Position numbers and translations under genes: made by a program. Shown here in pieces: positions 39,444 to 57,706 of a stretch of DNA of 64,000 nt. Source of the DNA: Escherichia phage ECO103 4-12-1; the sequence record OR844650. One strand, written 5' to 3'. The notes beneath the pieces were generated by a model that worked only from the letters and a program-made list of their open reading frames with translations, was not told the DNA's origin and did no database searches. Every line of letters begins with the position of its first letter. The first letter of the stretch is position 1.

Positions 39444-40592
39444 ATGTTACCTTTTGTTAGAATGTTTGATTATGGGAATGAAGCACCTACCAACTCTGGG
39501 CGTTTTAAAATATATTCCAGTGATTCTATGTATCTTCATGATACTTATACTGACAAGTTGTATGCATCTTCTGCGACGAATTGGGGTACTGGTACAGGTG
39601 TAGCATCGAGTAAATTTATTCTTTGTGCGGAGAATGTTAAACGAGTTCTATTGGAAGATAACAGTAGTGATTGTCAATTGTATGAAGAGAAAGGTACTGG
39701 AAAAGTTTTTATCACTGGTAACACGAAGGCATTCACTGGTGTAACTGATAGAAAAACTTTGTGGACGGACTGTACTACGTGGATAACATCAAGTGGTATT
39801 AATGTTTCTGATATAAAATACATGAGTAGTTTTTATGATATGAAGGTGAATTTGATAACAAACGATGGTACATTGTATTGTTGTGGAGCTAACAATATAT
39901 CGAACATATCATCATTTGGTGATGGCACAAACATTAATTCTTTTAACACATTCAAAAGAGTAGATACTATAACTTCGGTTAAAAAGGCAGTTGGTAACAT
40001 TTATTTGCGAGAAGATAATACTTTATGGGGTTGTGGTTTTAACTATTACTACCAGTTGGGCACGGGTAATCAAACTTCTATTACTGGGGTGACGATGATT
40101 TCTTCGGATGTTATAGATTTTAATGTAAGTTATCAGAGTACATTTTTTATCAAATCGGATAATAATTTGTACGCTTGTGGTAAACAGTTCGGTGCACAAT
40201 ATGGGAACGAATTTGGTACAGGTGGTACTTCCTCTTCTACTGATATACAATATAAAACTCCCACATTATTGAGTGCAGGTGTTTATAGTTTATATACTTG
40301 TGTTGGTAACATGGCATCACATATAGTTAAAGGTGATGAAGTACTTTATGCATCTGGAAGCAACTCGTCTGGTCAATTAGGTGTTGGTAATAATAATAAT
40401 CAGTACTCCTATACTCCTTCATATACTTCGTTTAATACCTCTTGTAATTTGGTACGCACCCCATCTGGTTCACTTATACTTACTGATACTGGAAAATTAT
40501 ATTATTGTGGCCTTGCAATAGTAGTAATGGGTGGTATTTCTGGACAGAACGTTCTTAATTATACAGAAGTCGATATGTCATTTTTGCAGTAA
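39444..40592 (+). CDS. RCC1-like beta-propeller repeat protein with MLPFVRMFDYGN leader (copy 1)
   Basis: ORF track 39426; ATG 8 nt after AAGGAGG; 'CGFNYYYQLGTGNQ','SGQLGVGNNN'. Confidence 0.75.
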   Translation: MLPFVRMFDYGNEAPTNSGRFKIYSSDSMYLHDTYTDKLYASSATNWGTGTGVASSKFILCAENVKRVLLEDNSSDCQLYEEKGTGKVFITGNTKAFTGVTDRKTLWTDCTTWITSSGINVSDIKYMSSFYDMKVNLITNDGTLYCCGANNISNISSFGDGTNINSFNTFKRVDTITSVKKAVGNIYLREDNTLWGCGFNYYYQLGTGNQTSITGVTMISSDVIDFNVSYQSTFFIKSDNNLYACGKQFGAQYGNEFGTGGTSSSTDIQYKTPTLLSAGVYSLYTCVGNMASHIVKGDEVLYASGSNSSGQLGVGNNNNQYSYTPSYTSFNTSCNLVRTPSGSLILTDTGKLYYCGLAIVVMGGISGQNVLNYTEVDMSFLQ

Positions 40593-40660
40593 ATTAATAT
40601 GCCAGTACTTGATACTGGCTTTTTTTGATTAAATATAGTATAATGAATAAAGGAGGAAAT
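40593..40660 (+). promoter_or_regulatory. conserved junction cassette: terminator hairpin (GCCAGTACT..AGTACTGGC + T-run), TATAGTATAAT box, AAGGAGG
   Basis: near-identical ~70-bp sequence recurs before 12 array genes. Confidence 0.55.
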
Positions 40661-41770
40661 ATGTTACCTTTTGTAAGAATGGTTAAGTACGGGAATATTG
40701 CACCAGTACCGAAAAAAATAAAGAAAGTTATAGCAGGATATGATAATTTATATGTACTATATGGTGATGGTTCGCTATATGGTTGTGGAATCAATAACTA
40801 TCAACAGTTAAATATTGATGGAACTGCTACACAAAATAATTGGGTACTAATTACCAATGGTGTTAGTAATGCATGGGCTGGTGGATACAATATTTTATAT
40901 TTGAAAGAAGATAAATTTATAATGCACGGAACTAATGTCTCATTAGGTTTAGGAAATACTACAATTCCATTAGGTGGAGTAGATGTAACTTCTTCATTCC
41001 CAGATATCTCTAATATTAAAATGATATCCATTGGTTTTGATTCAATGCACTATGTTAGTGCTGATGGTACAACTGTATATGGAAGAGGTATGAACACAAA
41101 TGGTTCTGTTGGTTCAGGTAGTACTTACTCACAGAGTACTTTCACTTCAGTACTGAATAATGGAACTAATCAGGTTATTGATATATTTGGTAACGTTAAT
41201 AATACAGTGCTTCTAACATCGAATGGTGAGCTTCGAGCATGTGGGACAAGTGCTTATGGTTCTATAGGAAATGAAACTGGTAAGTGGACATCGTTTGGTT
41301 TAAAATTATCTGGCACTAAAATAATGGGTGGTAATGGGTATAGTACGCTTGCATATACAAATTCGGGAATGTACCACTCAGGGTGGCAGTTAAATGGGGA
41401 ACTAGGAAATGGTTTAGATACTAACGTACAGGTATATCCATTTCAATTTAACTCTAAAACGATAGATAGCAAGATAGATAAAATTGCCAAATCATCATCT
41501 GGGTCATATGTTAACATGTACTCAACAACAGAAGGAAAGATATATACGACAGGTTCGTTTGGTAAAAACGGGTCAACTACTGCATTGAATTTGTTCACCA
41601 ATACATTAACACTTATAAATTACAATCCAGATACCGCCTCGTTGTATACGTGCACAAACTTCAGTGTTGTGTATGATGGTAATGAAACTATTGCTGTAAG
41701 TGGTAGTCCTACATATGTACCAGGGGGCGTTGCCGCTAATAGATGGACTACAATTCCATTACCCAAGTAA
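40661..41770 (+). CDS. RCC1-like beta-propeller repeat protein with MLPFVRMVKYGN leader (copy 2)
   Basis: ORF track 40625; 'GCGINNYQQLNIDG','NGELGNG'. Confidence 0.75.
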   Translation: MLPFVRMVKYGNIAPVPKKIKKVIAGYDNLYVLYGDGSLYGCGINNYQQLNIDGTATQNNWVLITNGVSNAWAGGYNILYLKEDKFIMHGTNVSLGLGNTTIPLGGVDVTSSFPDISNIKMISIGFDSMHYVSADGTTVYGRGMNTNGSVGSGSTYSQSTFTSVLNNGTNQVIDIFGNVNNTVLLTSNGELRACGTSAYGSIGNETGKWTSFGLKLSGTKIMGGNGYSTLAYTNSGMYHSGWQLNGELGNGLDTNVQVYPFQFNSKTIDSKIDKIAKSSSGSYVNMYSTTEGKIYTTGSFGKNGSTTALNLFTNTLTLINYNPDTASLYTCTNFSVVYDGNETIAVSGSPTYVPGGVAANRWTTIPLPK

Positions 41771-41841
41771 TACTATGCCAGTACTTGATGCTGGCATTTC
41801 TTTTTGTATTAAATATAGTATAATGTATAAAGGAGGAAAAT
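41771..41841 (+). promoter_or_regulatory. conserved junction cassette
   Basis: hairpin ATGCCAGTACTTGATGCTGGCAT + T-run; TATAAT; AAGGAGG. Confidence 0.5.
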
Positions 41842-55963: not shown

Positions 55964-56041
55964 TACTATAAAACTATGCCAGTACTTTGTACTGGCTTTC
56001 TTATTTGTATTAAATATAGTATAATGAATAAAGGAGGAATT
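55964..56041 (+). promoter_or_regulatory. conserved junction cassette
   Basis: hairpin + T-run; TATAGTATAAT; AAGGAGG. Confidence 0.5.
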
Positions 56042-57211
56042 ATGTTACCTTTTGGAAGAATGTTCAAGTACGGAAATATTAAACCAACTCTTCCTGAAAT
56101 AAAGAAATTGGATGGTAGTCAATTACATGTCGGATTACTTTATAGTACAGGGAATATGTACATGCGTGGTTCTGGTTCGAACTATAAATTAGGTACAGGG
56201 GATGCTAGTGATGTATTAGGTGGTTGGGTACATGTACCCTATGAAGTTGATGATTTTTGGGCGTGTGTATCCGGTACATTAATAAAGACTGTTGATAATA
56301 AATTATATTGTGCAGGTCTATACATGGGTGGATATTTTGGGGCTAGTGGTTCATATGTTAACTGGACTGAAGTAACTTCATTATTTGTAGGTATTGACGT
56401 GTCGCAAATAAAGAATATAGAATTTACGTCAGCGGGTACTTCCGGTAGTACACTAATATTGATGTTAGATGGTCGTTTATATGGGTTCGGTATGAACAGT
56501 AGATCTGAGTTAGGTGTTAATAACAAAGTTGTATCTCCCATTCTCATAGATACTGAGGTAAGTGCAATAGGAGCACATAAGTTAGGGGGTTCATCGTTCC
56601 ATTATATAAAAGGCGGTAAGTACTACAGATGTGGAACATCGGTTGGTAGTAATATTGGAAGTTCTTCTTTAACTACTTTTACGGTATTGAGTATTCCTGA
56701 TAACGTTATATCTATGCAAATATTATATGACAACGTACAGTTATTATGTTTAGGAAGTTCTGGATATAGTATCTATATGGCTGGTTCTAATGATTATGGT
56801 GGAAGAGGTGGTGGTGGTTCTACTGTTTACACTACATTCAGGAAAATAGATCTTACAGGATTTGGTGTTGCTCCCAGTGAAATACTATTTGAAAATGCCG
56901 GGAATGGTTATGTTAATATATCAACTGATAGTACTGGGGTATATACATGTGGTGGTGGGGCTGGTGTTAATGGTTTAGGTAGACCAACTGATGTGATACC
57001 AAGTTCACAGTTGGGTTCGGTTCAGTTCAGTACTGGAGTAGAACCATCAAATATAAGTCGTGTGTATTCACAGAGTTCGAGTTCTGTTATATATTGTATA
57101 GTTAATAATGAATTGTACTGGGCTGGTAGTAATTCATATTTTACTGATCAAACCACAAATACTGGTACACAATTTTCATTTATTAAGATGAAGGATATGC
57201 CTTCTGCTTAG
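56042..57211 (+). CDS. RCC1-like repeat protein with MLPFGRMFKYGN leader (copy 15; intact paralog of copy 8)
   Basis: ORF track 55976 (start corrected); 'YKLGTGDA','RSELGVNN'. Confidence 0.75.
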   Translation: MLPFGRMFKYGNIKPTLPEIKKLDGSQLHVGLLYSTGNMYMRGSGSNYKLGTGDASDVLGGWVHVPYEVDDFWACVSGTLIKTVDNKLYCAGLYMGGYFGASGSYVNWTEVTSLFVGIDVSQIKNIEFTSAGTSGSTLILMLDGRLYGFGMNSRSELGVNNKVVSPILIDTEVSAIGAHKLGGSSFHYIKGGKYYRCGTSVGSNIGSSSLTTFTVLSIPDNVISMQILYDNVQLLCLGSSGYSIYMAGSNDYGGRGGGGSTVYTTFRKIDLTGFGVAPSEILFENAGNGYVNISTDSTGVYTCGGGAGVNGLGRPTDVIPSSQLGSVQFSTGVEPSNISRVYSQSSSSVIYCIVNNELYWAGSNSYFTDQTTNTGTQFSFIKMKDMPSA

Positions 57212-57282
57212 ATTTTATGCCAGTGCCTTGTACTGGCATTTTTTGTCCTAAATATAATAACGATTTACATTTGGAGGATACA

Positions 57283-57706
57283 ATGCTACCCTTTCGAAGA
57301 ATTATCACATCATCAAAAAAGAACATACAACCTTCTGTTACAAAAATAGCTTCATCTGATACGACAGTTTTTGCCCTTATGTCAGATGGTACGTTGTACA
57401 GTAGAGAATCTCAAGAGTTTGGGTTATTCATATTTTTCTAATCATATTATAACTTCATTGGGTGTTTACGCAACTGGTAATAACACAGGCGATAACGCAG
57501 GTCAATTGGGTATAGGTACACAAACAGATGTGTCGGCCTATACCAAATGTGTACTACCAATAGAGATGAATATGAATAACGTATATGTTACAGCAACTTT
57601 ATACAGAACTTACTTAACCGATGGTATACAAATTTACAGTACTGGACAATATATTACAGACGGTGGAGTTGCCAGTACTGTATTTGTTAAAGATTCACCA
57701 TTTTAG
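57283..57706 (+). pseudogene. degenerate, frameshifted terminal RCC1-like copy (MLPFRRI leader)
   Basis: leader frame stops at 57441; second frame 57371-57706 carries 'AGQLGIGTQTD'; upstream cassette degenerate. Confidence 0.45.

Follow-up and report, generated by a model that had tools for sequence, protein, structure and literature searches.

A portable 12-residue N-terminal tag on RCC1-like propellers and other modules of jumbo phages, a candidate virion-docking peptide

Why would a phage keep sixteen genes in a row whose products begin alike and then diverge? This is the question raised by the array at positions 39,444-57,706 of a 64,000-nucleotide stretch of Escherichia phage ECO103 4-12-1 (sequence record OR844650), referred to below as the window. 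Reading of the open reading frames (ORFs) and a six-frame scan place all 16 genes, g01 to g16, on the plus strand, and bear out the preliminary description, made from the sequence alone, in its count of 14 intact and two degenerate genes: 13 are intact and RCC1-like (369-400 residues), one intact gene, g13, has a glycine-rich body, g08 is frameshifted and g16 is a remnant (coordinates of all features are collected in Table 1). The pattern LPFxR[ML]xx[YF]xN gives 15 matches, each at the start of a plus-strand ORF, and no other match in the six frames of the window, while the 16th start, at 57283, carries a decayed leader, MLPFRRIITSS. In g08 the leader and first blade are read in frame 0 up to about 47,972 and the remainder in the +1 frame (ORF 47948-49024); since the same single frameshift near 47,972 is found in Escherichia phage WPEC3, it is not a sequencing error. 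The g16 fragment is 100% identical to unannotated DNA of phage phAPEC6.

The shared leader takes the form M-L-P-F-x-R-(M/L)-x-x-Y-G-N in the array. M1, L2, P3, F4, R6 and N12 are fixed, positions 5, 7, 8 and 9 vary, and Y10 and G11 show one exception each, so that the word invariant, applied to it earlier, goes too far. MLPFVR and MLPFAR are among the leader starts (an example of the ensuing peptide is MFDYGNEAPTNSGR), and a short Pro-rich linker (I-A-P-x-P) leads from the tag to the globular body. In the AlphaFold2 models of g12 and g13, residues 1-9/10 have a predicted local distance difference test score (pLDDT) of about 50 or less and no secondary structure, and the first strand of g12 begins at residue 22; the leader is thus predicted to be a free, disordered N-terminal extension outside the folded body. 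An ATG located in the upstream cassette described below (TAATGAATAAAGGAGG) is in frame in six genes, where ORF calling then adds MNKGGN or a longer N-terminus. The position of the ribosome-binding site (RBS), together with the distant homologues, indicates that the ATG of MLPF is the true start.

Concerning the bodies, mean pairwise identity among the paralogues is 24%, compared with 81% for the leader, with g01/g05 (52%) and g02/g14 (63%) as the closer pairs. By this measure the paralogues are old. Orthologue pairs between ECO103 4-12-1 and WPEC3 or phAPEC6 show ratios of nonsynonymous to synonymous substitution rates (dN/dS) of 0.15-0.34; hence, the array genes are functional and under purifying selection, gene-wide positive selection on the bodies is rejected, and the earlier term hypervariable is an overstatement for this set of old paralogues. 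The signatures YYQLGTG, GQLGDG, GQLGNG, SELGTA and GELGNG are found in the array bodies. Nine RCC1-like bodies were scanned with Pfam: PF00415 and/or PF13540 pass the curated cut-off in seven, and the RLD model (PF25390) matches all nine with E = 1e-8 to 1e-23, yet under its 150-bit cut-off. The g08 body also matches RCC1-type Pfam models. The AlphaFold2 model of g12 reaches a pLDDT of 90.8 and a predicted template-modelling (TM) score of 0.88, and its top Foldseek matches are UVR8, RPGR, the HERC1/2 RLDs and RCC1 (E = 1e-15 to 1e-20, TM 0.63-0.76), at 12-20% sequence identity. The structure search returned eukaryotic RLDs only and no solved phage RCC1-like structure. Signatures, Pfam, model and fold matches together sustain the earlier assignment to seven-bladed RCC1-like propellers, as a prediction, for the 13 intact copies, but not for g13. 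Most propellers end in a weaker C-terminal motif, (F/W)-x-(K/T)-(I/V/T)-x-(L/M)-P (e.g. 53,940-53,973; 41,740-41,770), which probably forms the strand that closes the final blade.

The exception, g13, is modeled with a pLDDT of 92.7 and a disordered leader. It has no match in the Pfam scan nor in a sequence search of the PDB, and is assigned to phrog_4474. Its 194 sequence homologues include many with a precomputed PF21722 annotation, although the direct Pfam scan of g13 gave no match. Fold matches in BFVD are glycine-rich domain proteins, with E values down to 4e-15, and comprise baseplate, tail-fibre and minor-tail proteins, whereas those in the PDB (cyanophage Pam3 fibre, Bxb1 tail tip) are weak, with a TM of 0.28. 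Both homology and model suggest that g13 belongs to a widespread phage family of glycine-rich domain proteins, one homologue of which, CBB_144 of phage CBB, is a virion protein.

How far does the leader extend beyond this array? A tblastn search with a 22-residue query finds it in 59 of 50,697 phage records, all of 310-386 kb, which belong to Asteriusvirus, Mimasvirus, Eneladusvirus, the Munch/7t3/SE_PL group, fENko-Kae01, XaC1/XbC2 and Kaldavass/Hallingskeid; neither RaK2 nor K64-1 was matched in this search. A 30-position leader profile recovers 57 matches among 1.84 billion representative proteins, nearly all from residue 1, two of them being obvious repeat false positives. The clade-wide form is M-[LIF]-P-[FI]-x-x-(M/L/I)-x-x-Y-G-N, exemplified by GAP32 gp001 (MLPFSRIIQYGN), GAP32 gp002 (MLPFARIFRYGD), CBB_144 (MLPFSPLIVYGN), g527c-531c of Yersinia phage fHe-Yen9-04 (MLPF[SP][IV]I...) and XaC1_556-558 of Xanthomonas phage XaC1 (MFPIP[IV]IS.YGN). 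In other genera the upstream DNA has diverged and the leader codons have changed synonymously.

The bodies behind the tag are of many kinds. Scanning IMG/VR for the leader DNA pattern, translating the ORFs and clustering the bodies yields at least eight unrelated body clusters. Tagged bodies include RCC1 propellers, RCC1+Kelch double propellers of about 670 residues, Kelch propellers (CBB_550, 552 and 554, and P0164, a protein with the exact Asteriusvirus leader), several Laminin_G_3/ConA-like lectin families (CBB_548 and 551; the GAP32_002/CBB_549/553 type), the glycine-rich family, a 168-residue family and singletons. Arrays of other genera mix body types in tandem, as in locus L016. The glycine-rich homologues outside the clade mostly have other N-termini (MLELL..., MIELL..., or MFEMML... 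in PVP-SE1 gp19) and MLPF/MIPF occurs in clade members only, which shows that the same body is fitted with different N-termini.

Further observations were made on this family. Beyond the jumbo clade (P0026-P0056, PVP-SE1 gp19; L005:2998-3840) it shows an N-terminus of its own, M(L/I/F)E(L/M/A)(L/M), on contigs of 80-216 kb, which may be a different clade-specific tag with the same role. CBB_144 (L004:3001-3765) is a tagged glycine-rich gene standing alone, moron-like, between nrdD and nrdG and outside any array, so tagged genes can be scattered over the genome. A g13 homologue on a 26.7-kb Logan contig (P0023) starts MNKGGN-KIEYKP...: its 12 leader codons are exactly deleted, joining the upstream ATG to codon 13, and there is also an internal deletion. 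Flanking GG(G/A)AAT repeats could have mediated the loss of the leader, and the sequence may represent either an allele that lacks the leader or an error of assembly.

Alignment of the 16 starts from -100 to +80 reveals a conserved block of about 100 nucleotides comprising, in this order, a hairpin with a T-run, a box, AAGGAGG and the 36-nucleotide leader. Conservation is unbroken from about -65 to +36 and collapses beyond. The hairpin has the form GCCAGTACT(n3-5)(A)GTACTGGC followed by the T-run. The box is the 15-mer TTAAATATAGTATAAT, with 13 copies before array genes; elsewhere in the window there are just two matches with two mismatches (upstream at 17.8 kb and on the minus strand within g08), 1.9 being expected by chance. 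Terminator-like hairpins number 27 against 7.5 +/- 2.6 expected, and sigma-70-type sites are not enriched (101 vs 98.5 expected). The authors of the CBB study derived from structural genes a late-promoter format [ACG]TAAATA...ATA (e.g. CTAAATATAATATA). The cassette box TTAAATATAGTATA fits this format, xTAAATA...ATA, which is also found upstream of CBB_537, 551, 552 and 553. On the evidence of these motifs, each cassette-bearing array gene looks like its own late transcription unit.

The cassettes resemble the PeSL composite terminator/promoter cassettes of T4-like phages (PMC2839356, PMC4122927) in that a stem-loop terminator and a promoter are repeated between variable genes (13 cassettes) and that insertions, deletions and swaps between close genomes occur at them. 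They differ in having a late (TAAATA) promoter in place of an early sigma-70 one, and in that the conserved block runs through the RBS into the first 12 codons, adding a protein signal.

The genome comparison fits such a role in exchange. By megablast, positions 39,000-47,000 are 99.5% identical to WPEC3 over the first four genes, up to the g04/g05 junction, and show patchy identity of 86-98% to about 35 genomes of 310-386 kb, including phAPEC6, 121Q, PBECO4, G17 and Sharanji, which identifies the source of the window, on sequence grounds, as an Asteriusvirus-type jumbo coliphage. Genes g01-g04 and g06-g11 match WPEC3 at 99-100% identity, g05 and g13-g16 match phAPEC6 at 97-100%, and g12 stands at 83% to both alike. 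Genes g05 (97% identical to phAPEC6 gp550) and g13 are absent from WPEC3, and the g15 orthologue lies elsewhere in the WPEC3 order. Whole-gene presence or absence and gene order thus differ with respect to WPEC3, phAPEC6 and 121Q, with the breakpoints at cassettes. The leaders follow a pattern of their own: the g01 body is 95% identical to that of phAPEC6 gp549, yet there are five differences in the first 14 residues. All phAPEC6 leaders are of a K type (VKY, IKY, LKY, with one MNY exception), and the FDY type sits on 8-9 paralogues of the WPEC3/ECO103 4-12-1 lineage. Leader variants being independent of body orthology, together with the changes in content and order, point to concerted evolution and to whole-gene shuffling at the repeated junctions. 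The junction cassette of about 100 nucleotides, leader codons included, would serve as recombination homology through which phages gain, lose, rearrange and exchange entire genes. Copy number differs as well: 11 copies are annotated in phAPEC6, WPEC3 and ECO103 4-12-1 have 16 leader starts each, and phAPEC6, 121Q and WPEC3 range over 11-18 copies. An expansion of this size, initially taken as very unusual for a phage, is therefore typical of the genus, where it has been annotated and discussed.

Are the products part of the particle? Published whole-virion mass spectrometry (MS) of CBB, phAPEC6 and GAP32 bears on this, giving no location within the particle. CBB has 11 tagged proteins (CBB_144, 536, 537, 548-554 and one more in locus L011), eight of which (144, 536, 537, 548, 549, 551, 552 and 553, each beginning with MLPF) were detected by electrospray-ionisation tandem MS of virions, compared with 55 of 554 products overall (hypergeometric P = 7.6e-7). 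In Asteriusvirus the array carries the annotation regulator of chromosome condensation; in phAPEC6, eight of the 11-12 tagged proteins (gp003, 005, 006, 007, 009, 010, 549 and 551) appear in the 62-protein virion table, an enrichment whose P lies between 2e-6 and 6e-5 according to the denominator chosen. In GAP32, gp001 was likewise found in the virion. The earlier idea that array products are virion proteins gains strongly from this enrichment. Earlier papers have reported the array and its virion association. The CBB authors remarked on pairwise homology only (536/537, 549/553) and not on the shared N-terminus, a literature search on the motif (MLPF with phage) found nothing relevant, and a comparative review of jumbo phages mentions neither propellers nor the tag. 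What appears to lack an earlier description is the modular tag shared across the clade, its enrichment in virion proteomes and the architecture of the cassettes.

Taken together, we propose, with a probability of roughly 0.6, that the 12-residue tag is a virion-incorporation docking peptide which loads interchangeable, late-expressed ligand-binding heads onto a shared site of the virion. The array would be a library of cassettes, expressed late, for small ligand-binding proteins that are probably monomers and have a common, portable N-terminal tag. Each gene would be expressed as its own unit, consisting of terminator hairpin, late-type promoter (xTAAATA...ATA), strong RBS, tag, linker and body. 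The flexible tag would dock, probably as an added strand or a hydrophobic plug, in one conserved site on a virion component of the clade, so that any body bearing it gets loaded onto the particle. Sharing the tag, the paralogues would compete for sites and the virion would carry a mixture of heads. We infer that the sites are external, as capsid or tail decoration or on the hairy fibres of phAPEC6 and CBB, and that the heads recognise glycans on the host surface, because of the fold repertoire of propellers, ConA/LamG lectins and a fibre-type glycine-rich domain; in the literature, ConA/LamG lectins of jumbo phages are linked to fibres and surface decorations. An external location also fits the unexplained capsid and tail fibres of phAPEC6 and CBB. 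The preliminary description already suggested that diversified ligand-binding proteins have in common a signal for anchoring, targeting or processing, and a leader that is N-terminal, disordered, modular, conserved as a peptide (see below) and enriched in virions supports this.

A close functional parallel is found in the secondary receptor-binding proteins of Klebsiella podophages, KP32 gp38 and KP34 gp57, which have a conserved N-terminal docking peptide that is dispensable for folding, needed for virion loading and transferable to foreign bodies (PMC6872550, PMC13352976). In both cases a short conserved N-terminal peptide precedes otherwise unrelated bodies, and a clade-specific adaptor is combined with an exchangeable binding module. 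They differ as follows: the tag has 12 residues against 29, there are about 14 paralogues per genome against one, sequence similarity is absent, and the bodies are small, apparently monomeric propellers or lectins rather than trimeric beta-helical depolymerases. The array tag may thus work like the podophage peptide but is not a member of that system. The partner in KP32 is a T4 gp10-like branching domain, whereas the counterpart of the array tag is postulated, its docking function being assigned by analogy. A second parallel is provided by the branched tail-fibre systems of RaK2 (gp526-534) and CBA120 (TSP1-4), joined via conserved N-terminal domains (PMC10253068). In RaK2, which represents a related jumbo genus, numerous alternative proteins for host binding are clustered and have N-terminal assembly modules in common, an arrangement comparable to that of the array. 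In those systems, unlike here, the modules are folded domains of about 100 residues on large trimeric depolymerases, and RaK2 and K64-1 lack leader matches. Synteny of the array with the RaK2 tail-fibre cluster is not claimed, since gene order differs.

Several points weigh against the docking proposal. The link between leader and virion is correlative and comes from relatives rather than from ECO103 4-12-1 itself, and tagged CBB_550, CBB_554 and phAPEC6 gp001, 002 and 550 were undetected in virion MS. The CBB tables list proteins and not peptides, and are silent on whether the leader is retained. The external location is drawn from the fold types, with the glycine-rich domain matching PDB entries weakly, and the virion docking partner is postulated. 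The phAPEC6 authors favoured a DNA or inner-body role for the RCC1-like proteins. Finally, the leader codons of the array are near-frozen: TTA is used in 14 of 14 cases, CCT in 14 of 14 and GGG in 11 of 13, although GGG makes up just 12% of body Gly codons. With synonymous sites almost frozen, part of the uniformity within the genome appears to be nucleotide-level, through gene conversion or translation-initiation context.

A more far-reaching form of the proposal can be offered tentatively. The tag would be a general display tag of this jumbo-phage clade, necessary and sufficient to plug any protein into a multivalent external scaffold, and the virion would wear a stochastic mix taken from a shuffled library of about 14 lectin-like heads. 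The scaffold would be the hair or whisker fibres of phAPEC6 and CBB, or the fibre anchors at their capsid hexamer centres. If true, the virion would have a combinatorial adhesion coat as a form of bet-hedging, and the phage would offer a naturally occurring plug-and-play system for display.

The main rival, which we regard as unlikely, takes the tag for a capsid-targeting sequence (CTS) in the T4 sense: the proteins would be packed in the head via the prohead core, would be part of the inner body or be ejected, and would have a role in DNA organisation or after injection, while the tag may or may not be cut by the prohead protease. The polymorphic internal proteins of T4, highly diverse as they are, have an N-terminal signal of about 10 residues as their sole conserved feature (PMC3012670), much as a short N-terminal signal here precedes diverse, fast-turning-over virion proteins. 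In addition, phAPEC6 has an inner body and its authors suggested DNA organisation by the RCC1-like proteins, the tagged proteins are of low abundance in the virion, and the clade shows a distant likeness to T4, including a late sigma factor that resembles gp55 and a late promoter of the T4 kind. What counts against the rival is first the leader itself. Among 83 distinct leader-bearing ORFs, position 9 shows no conserved acidic residue (K36/D12/Q11/E10/N5, also V/H/A) and positions 13-18 are variable, with no conserved Glu for a T4 gp21-type cut, so a T4-type proteolytic signal is rejected. To our knowledge, moreover, the leader does not resemble the T4 consensus. Secondly, the bodies (propellers, ConA/LamG lectins and a glycine-rich domain of fibre/tail type) have folds that typify external adhesion modules, and are not the small basic anti-restriction proteins that the T4 signal accompanies; nucleic-acid binding of the tagged proteins is without support.

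It is improbable that the peptide has no function at all and that the leader is the coding end of a repeated regulatory and recombination cassette, where gene conversion, together with selection for an unstructured, well-initiating 5' end of the mRNA, maintains its uniformity. The continuous conservation from about -65 to +36 followed by collapse, the near-invariant synonymous sites including a rare Gly codon, the spread of leader variants apart from body orthology (FDY in ECO103 4-12-1/WPEC3, VKY throughout phAPEC6) and the precedent of PeSL-type cassettes as recombination points in T4-like phages are all in line with it. It explains uniformity within a genome but not conservation of the peptide across the clade. 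Between genera the cassette diverges and the peptide stays, with synonymous changes: over the 83 ORFs, P3 is encoded by CCT, CCA, CCC or CCG, G11 by GGG, GGA, GGT or GGC and Y10 by TAC or TAT, the residues being constant, and M1, P3, Y10, G11 and N12 are retained across Asteriusvirus, Mimasvirus, Eneladusvirus and XaC1-type phages despite the codon changes. The leader is also kept in g05 and g07, which are without the promoter cassette, the motif stands on at least eight unrelated bodies at scattered positions such as that of CBB_144, and the tagged proteins are strongly enriched in virions. These comparisons argue that selection acts on the leader peptide itself.

Very improbable is the function contained in the database names, namely that the proteins are of the RCC1 type and regulate the condensation of chromosomes or DNA, be it that of the phage or of the host, with the leader irrelevant. 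The names are carried by about 35 genomes, a 2026 genome paper still uses chromosome condensation regulator for such genes, and the phAPEC6 authors speculated in this direction. The array propellers do share the repeat signature and fold (TM about 0.75) of the RLD propellers UVR8, RPGR, HERC1/2 and RCC1, but differ in their 12-20% identity, phage virion context and extra N-terminal tag, and guanine-nucleotide exchange or chromatin activity is without support. The name merely labels a fold, and among the nearest structures are the RLDs of UVR8, RPGR and HERC2, propellers that serve in protein interaction. Kelch, lectin and glycine-rich bodies, which have no link to DNA, share this tag and locus, and the proteins are found in virions. 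This virion context and a tag held in common with lectins argue against Ran exchange-factor or chromatin-binding activity, and we know of no Ran-like GTPase partner in bacteria.

Propellers are commonly closed by an N-terminal strand and here both the N- and C-terminal motifs are conserved, but the notion that the leader is such a velcro strand closing the seven-bladed propeller and kept for folding is rejected, because the leader is disordered in both models (residues 1-9 in g12, with the first strand at residue 22) and is present on non-propeller bodies.

Other features lie outside the array. Directly upstream, at 34,550-39,341 on the minus strand, lies a second tandem family of about 20 tiny genes (59-81 residues) with the pattern KE(F/Y)Y...L...C...Y...L(K/L)LI, 30% mean identity over 16 aligned copies and counterparts in WPEC3 that are annotated as hypothetical proteins. 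GC skew in this region is positive (+0.15 to +0.20) despite the minus strand, whereas the other minus-strand genes of the window show negative skew. An ORF-poor segment of about 1.3 kb (33,220-34,500) coincides with the turn of the cumulative GC skew; a search of 32.5-34.7 kb with Rfam gave one sub-threshold chance match (SCARNA7, E = 0.028), and a tRNA scan of the window found none. Further upstream, the minus strand carries at 6,570-12,278 a dense row of about 30 small ORFs (70-114 residues), many of them overlapping, in a pattern that looks like the early region typical of jumbo phages. Just past the end of the array, at 57,687-59,811 on the minus strand, a 220-residue ORF is followed by four tandem small hydrophobic, membrane-like ORFs (104-141 residues); a similar series of genes for putative membrane proteins, CBB_539-547, stands beside the tagged cluster of CBB.

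Table 1. Genes, junction cassettes and start positions of the tagged array, given as positions in the window.
Feature	Position	Strand	Content	Remark
Leader-motif starts	39444, 40661, 41842, 43099, 44240, 45454, 46665, 47845, 49095, 50326, 51590, 52831, 54045, 54854, 56042	+		
Upstream in-frame ORF starts	39,426; 40,625; 49,059; 51,458; 54,836; 55,976			
Promoter-like box and RBS	39413..39443	+	box TAAATATGATATAAT, RBS	before g01
g01	39444..40592	+	leader MLPFVRMFDYGN, RCC1-like propeller, 382 residues	99.7% identity to WPEC3 CDS097
Junction cassette	40601..40660	+	hairpin GCCAGTACTTGATACTGGC with T-run, TTAAATATAGTATAAT box, AAGGAGG RBS	
g02	40661..41770	+	leader MLPFVRMVKYGN, RCC1-like propeller, 369 residues	g14 paralogue, 63%
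Junction cassette	41775..41841	+	terminator hairpin, late-promoter-like box, RBS	
g03	41842..43023	+	leader, RCC1-like propeller, 393 residues	
Junction cassette	43026..43098	+		divergent variant
g04	43099..44229	+	leader, RCC1-like propeller, 376 residues	
g05	44240..45382	+	leader MLPFVRMVKFGN, RCC1-like propeller, 380 residues	no upstream cassette, abuts g04
Junction cassette	45389..45453	+		
g06	45454..46656	+	leader MLPFARMVKYAN, RCC1-like propeller, 400 residues	
g07	46665..47774	+	leader MLPFVRLFDYGN, RCC1-like propeller, 369 residues	no cassette; start 9 nucleotides past g06 stop
Junction cassette	47781..47844	+		
g08	47845..49024	+	RCC1-like	frameshifted
Junction cassette	49029..49094	+		
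g09	49095..50249	+	leader, RCC1-like propeller, 384 residues	
Junction cassette	50255..50325	+		
g10	50326..51516	+	leader, RCC1-like propeller, 396 residues	
Junction cassette	51524..51589	+		
g11	51590..52777	+	leader, RCC1-like propeller, 395 residues	
Junction cassette	52766..52830	+		before g12
g12	52831..53973	+	leader, RCC1-like propeller, 380 residues	copy used for AlphaFold2 model
Junction cassette	53980..54044	+		before g13; almost identical to that of g12
g13	54045..54782	+	leader MLPFGRMVKYGN, glycine-rich domain body, 245 residues	not RCC1-like
Junction cassette	54788..54853	+		
g14	54854..55963	+	leader MLPFVRMIKYGN, RCC1-like propeller, 369 residues	99% identity to MS-detected phAPEC6 gp009
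Junction cassette	55978..56041	+		
g15	56042..57211	+	leader MLPFGRMFKYGN, RCC1-like propeller, 389 residues	99% identity to MS-detected phAPEC6 gp010
Junction cassette	57217..57282	+	CCTAAATATAATAACG	decayed
g16	57283..57706	+	decayed leader and first blade, then last blades in other frame (ORF 57371-57706)	remnant

Virion binding modules loaded by a tag would replace the misleading label of regulator of chromosome condensation, or DNA condensation protein, that dozens of jumbo-phage genomes, and papers as recent as 2026, attach to these genes. One 12-residue tag unites RCC1, Kelch, Laminin-G, glycine-rich and orphan families formerly listed as unrelated structural proteins, and the tagged proteins become a concrete candidate for what makes up the hairy decorations, so far unexplained, on phAPEC6 and CBB. 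Should the tag suffice for loading, it would be a very small handle with which to display cargo on therapeutic jumbo phages or to retarget them. The cassette of terminator, late promoter, RBS and leader would at the same time be a clear example of a regulatory element that doubles as recombination joint and protein-sorting signal.

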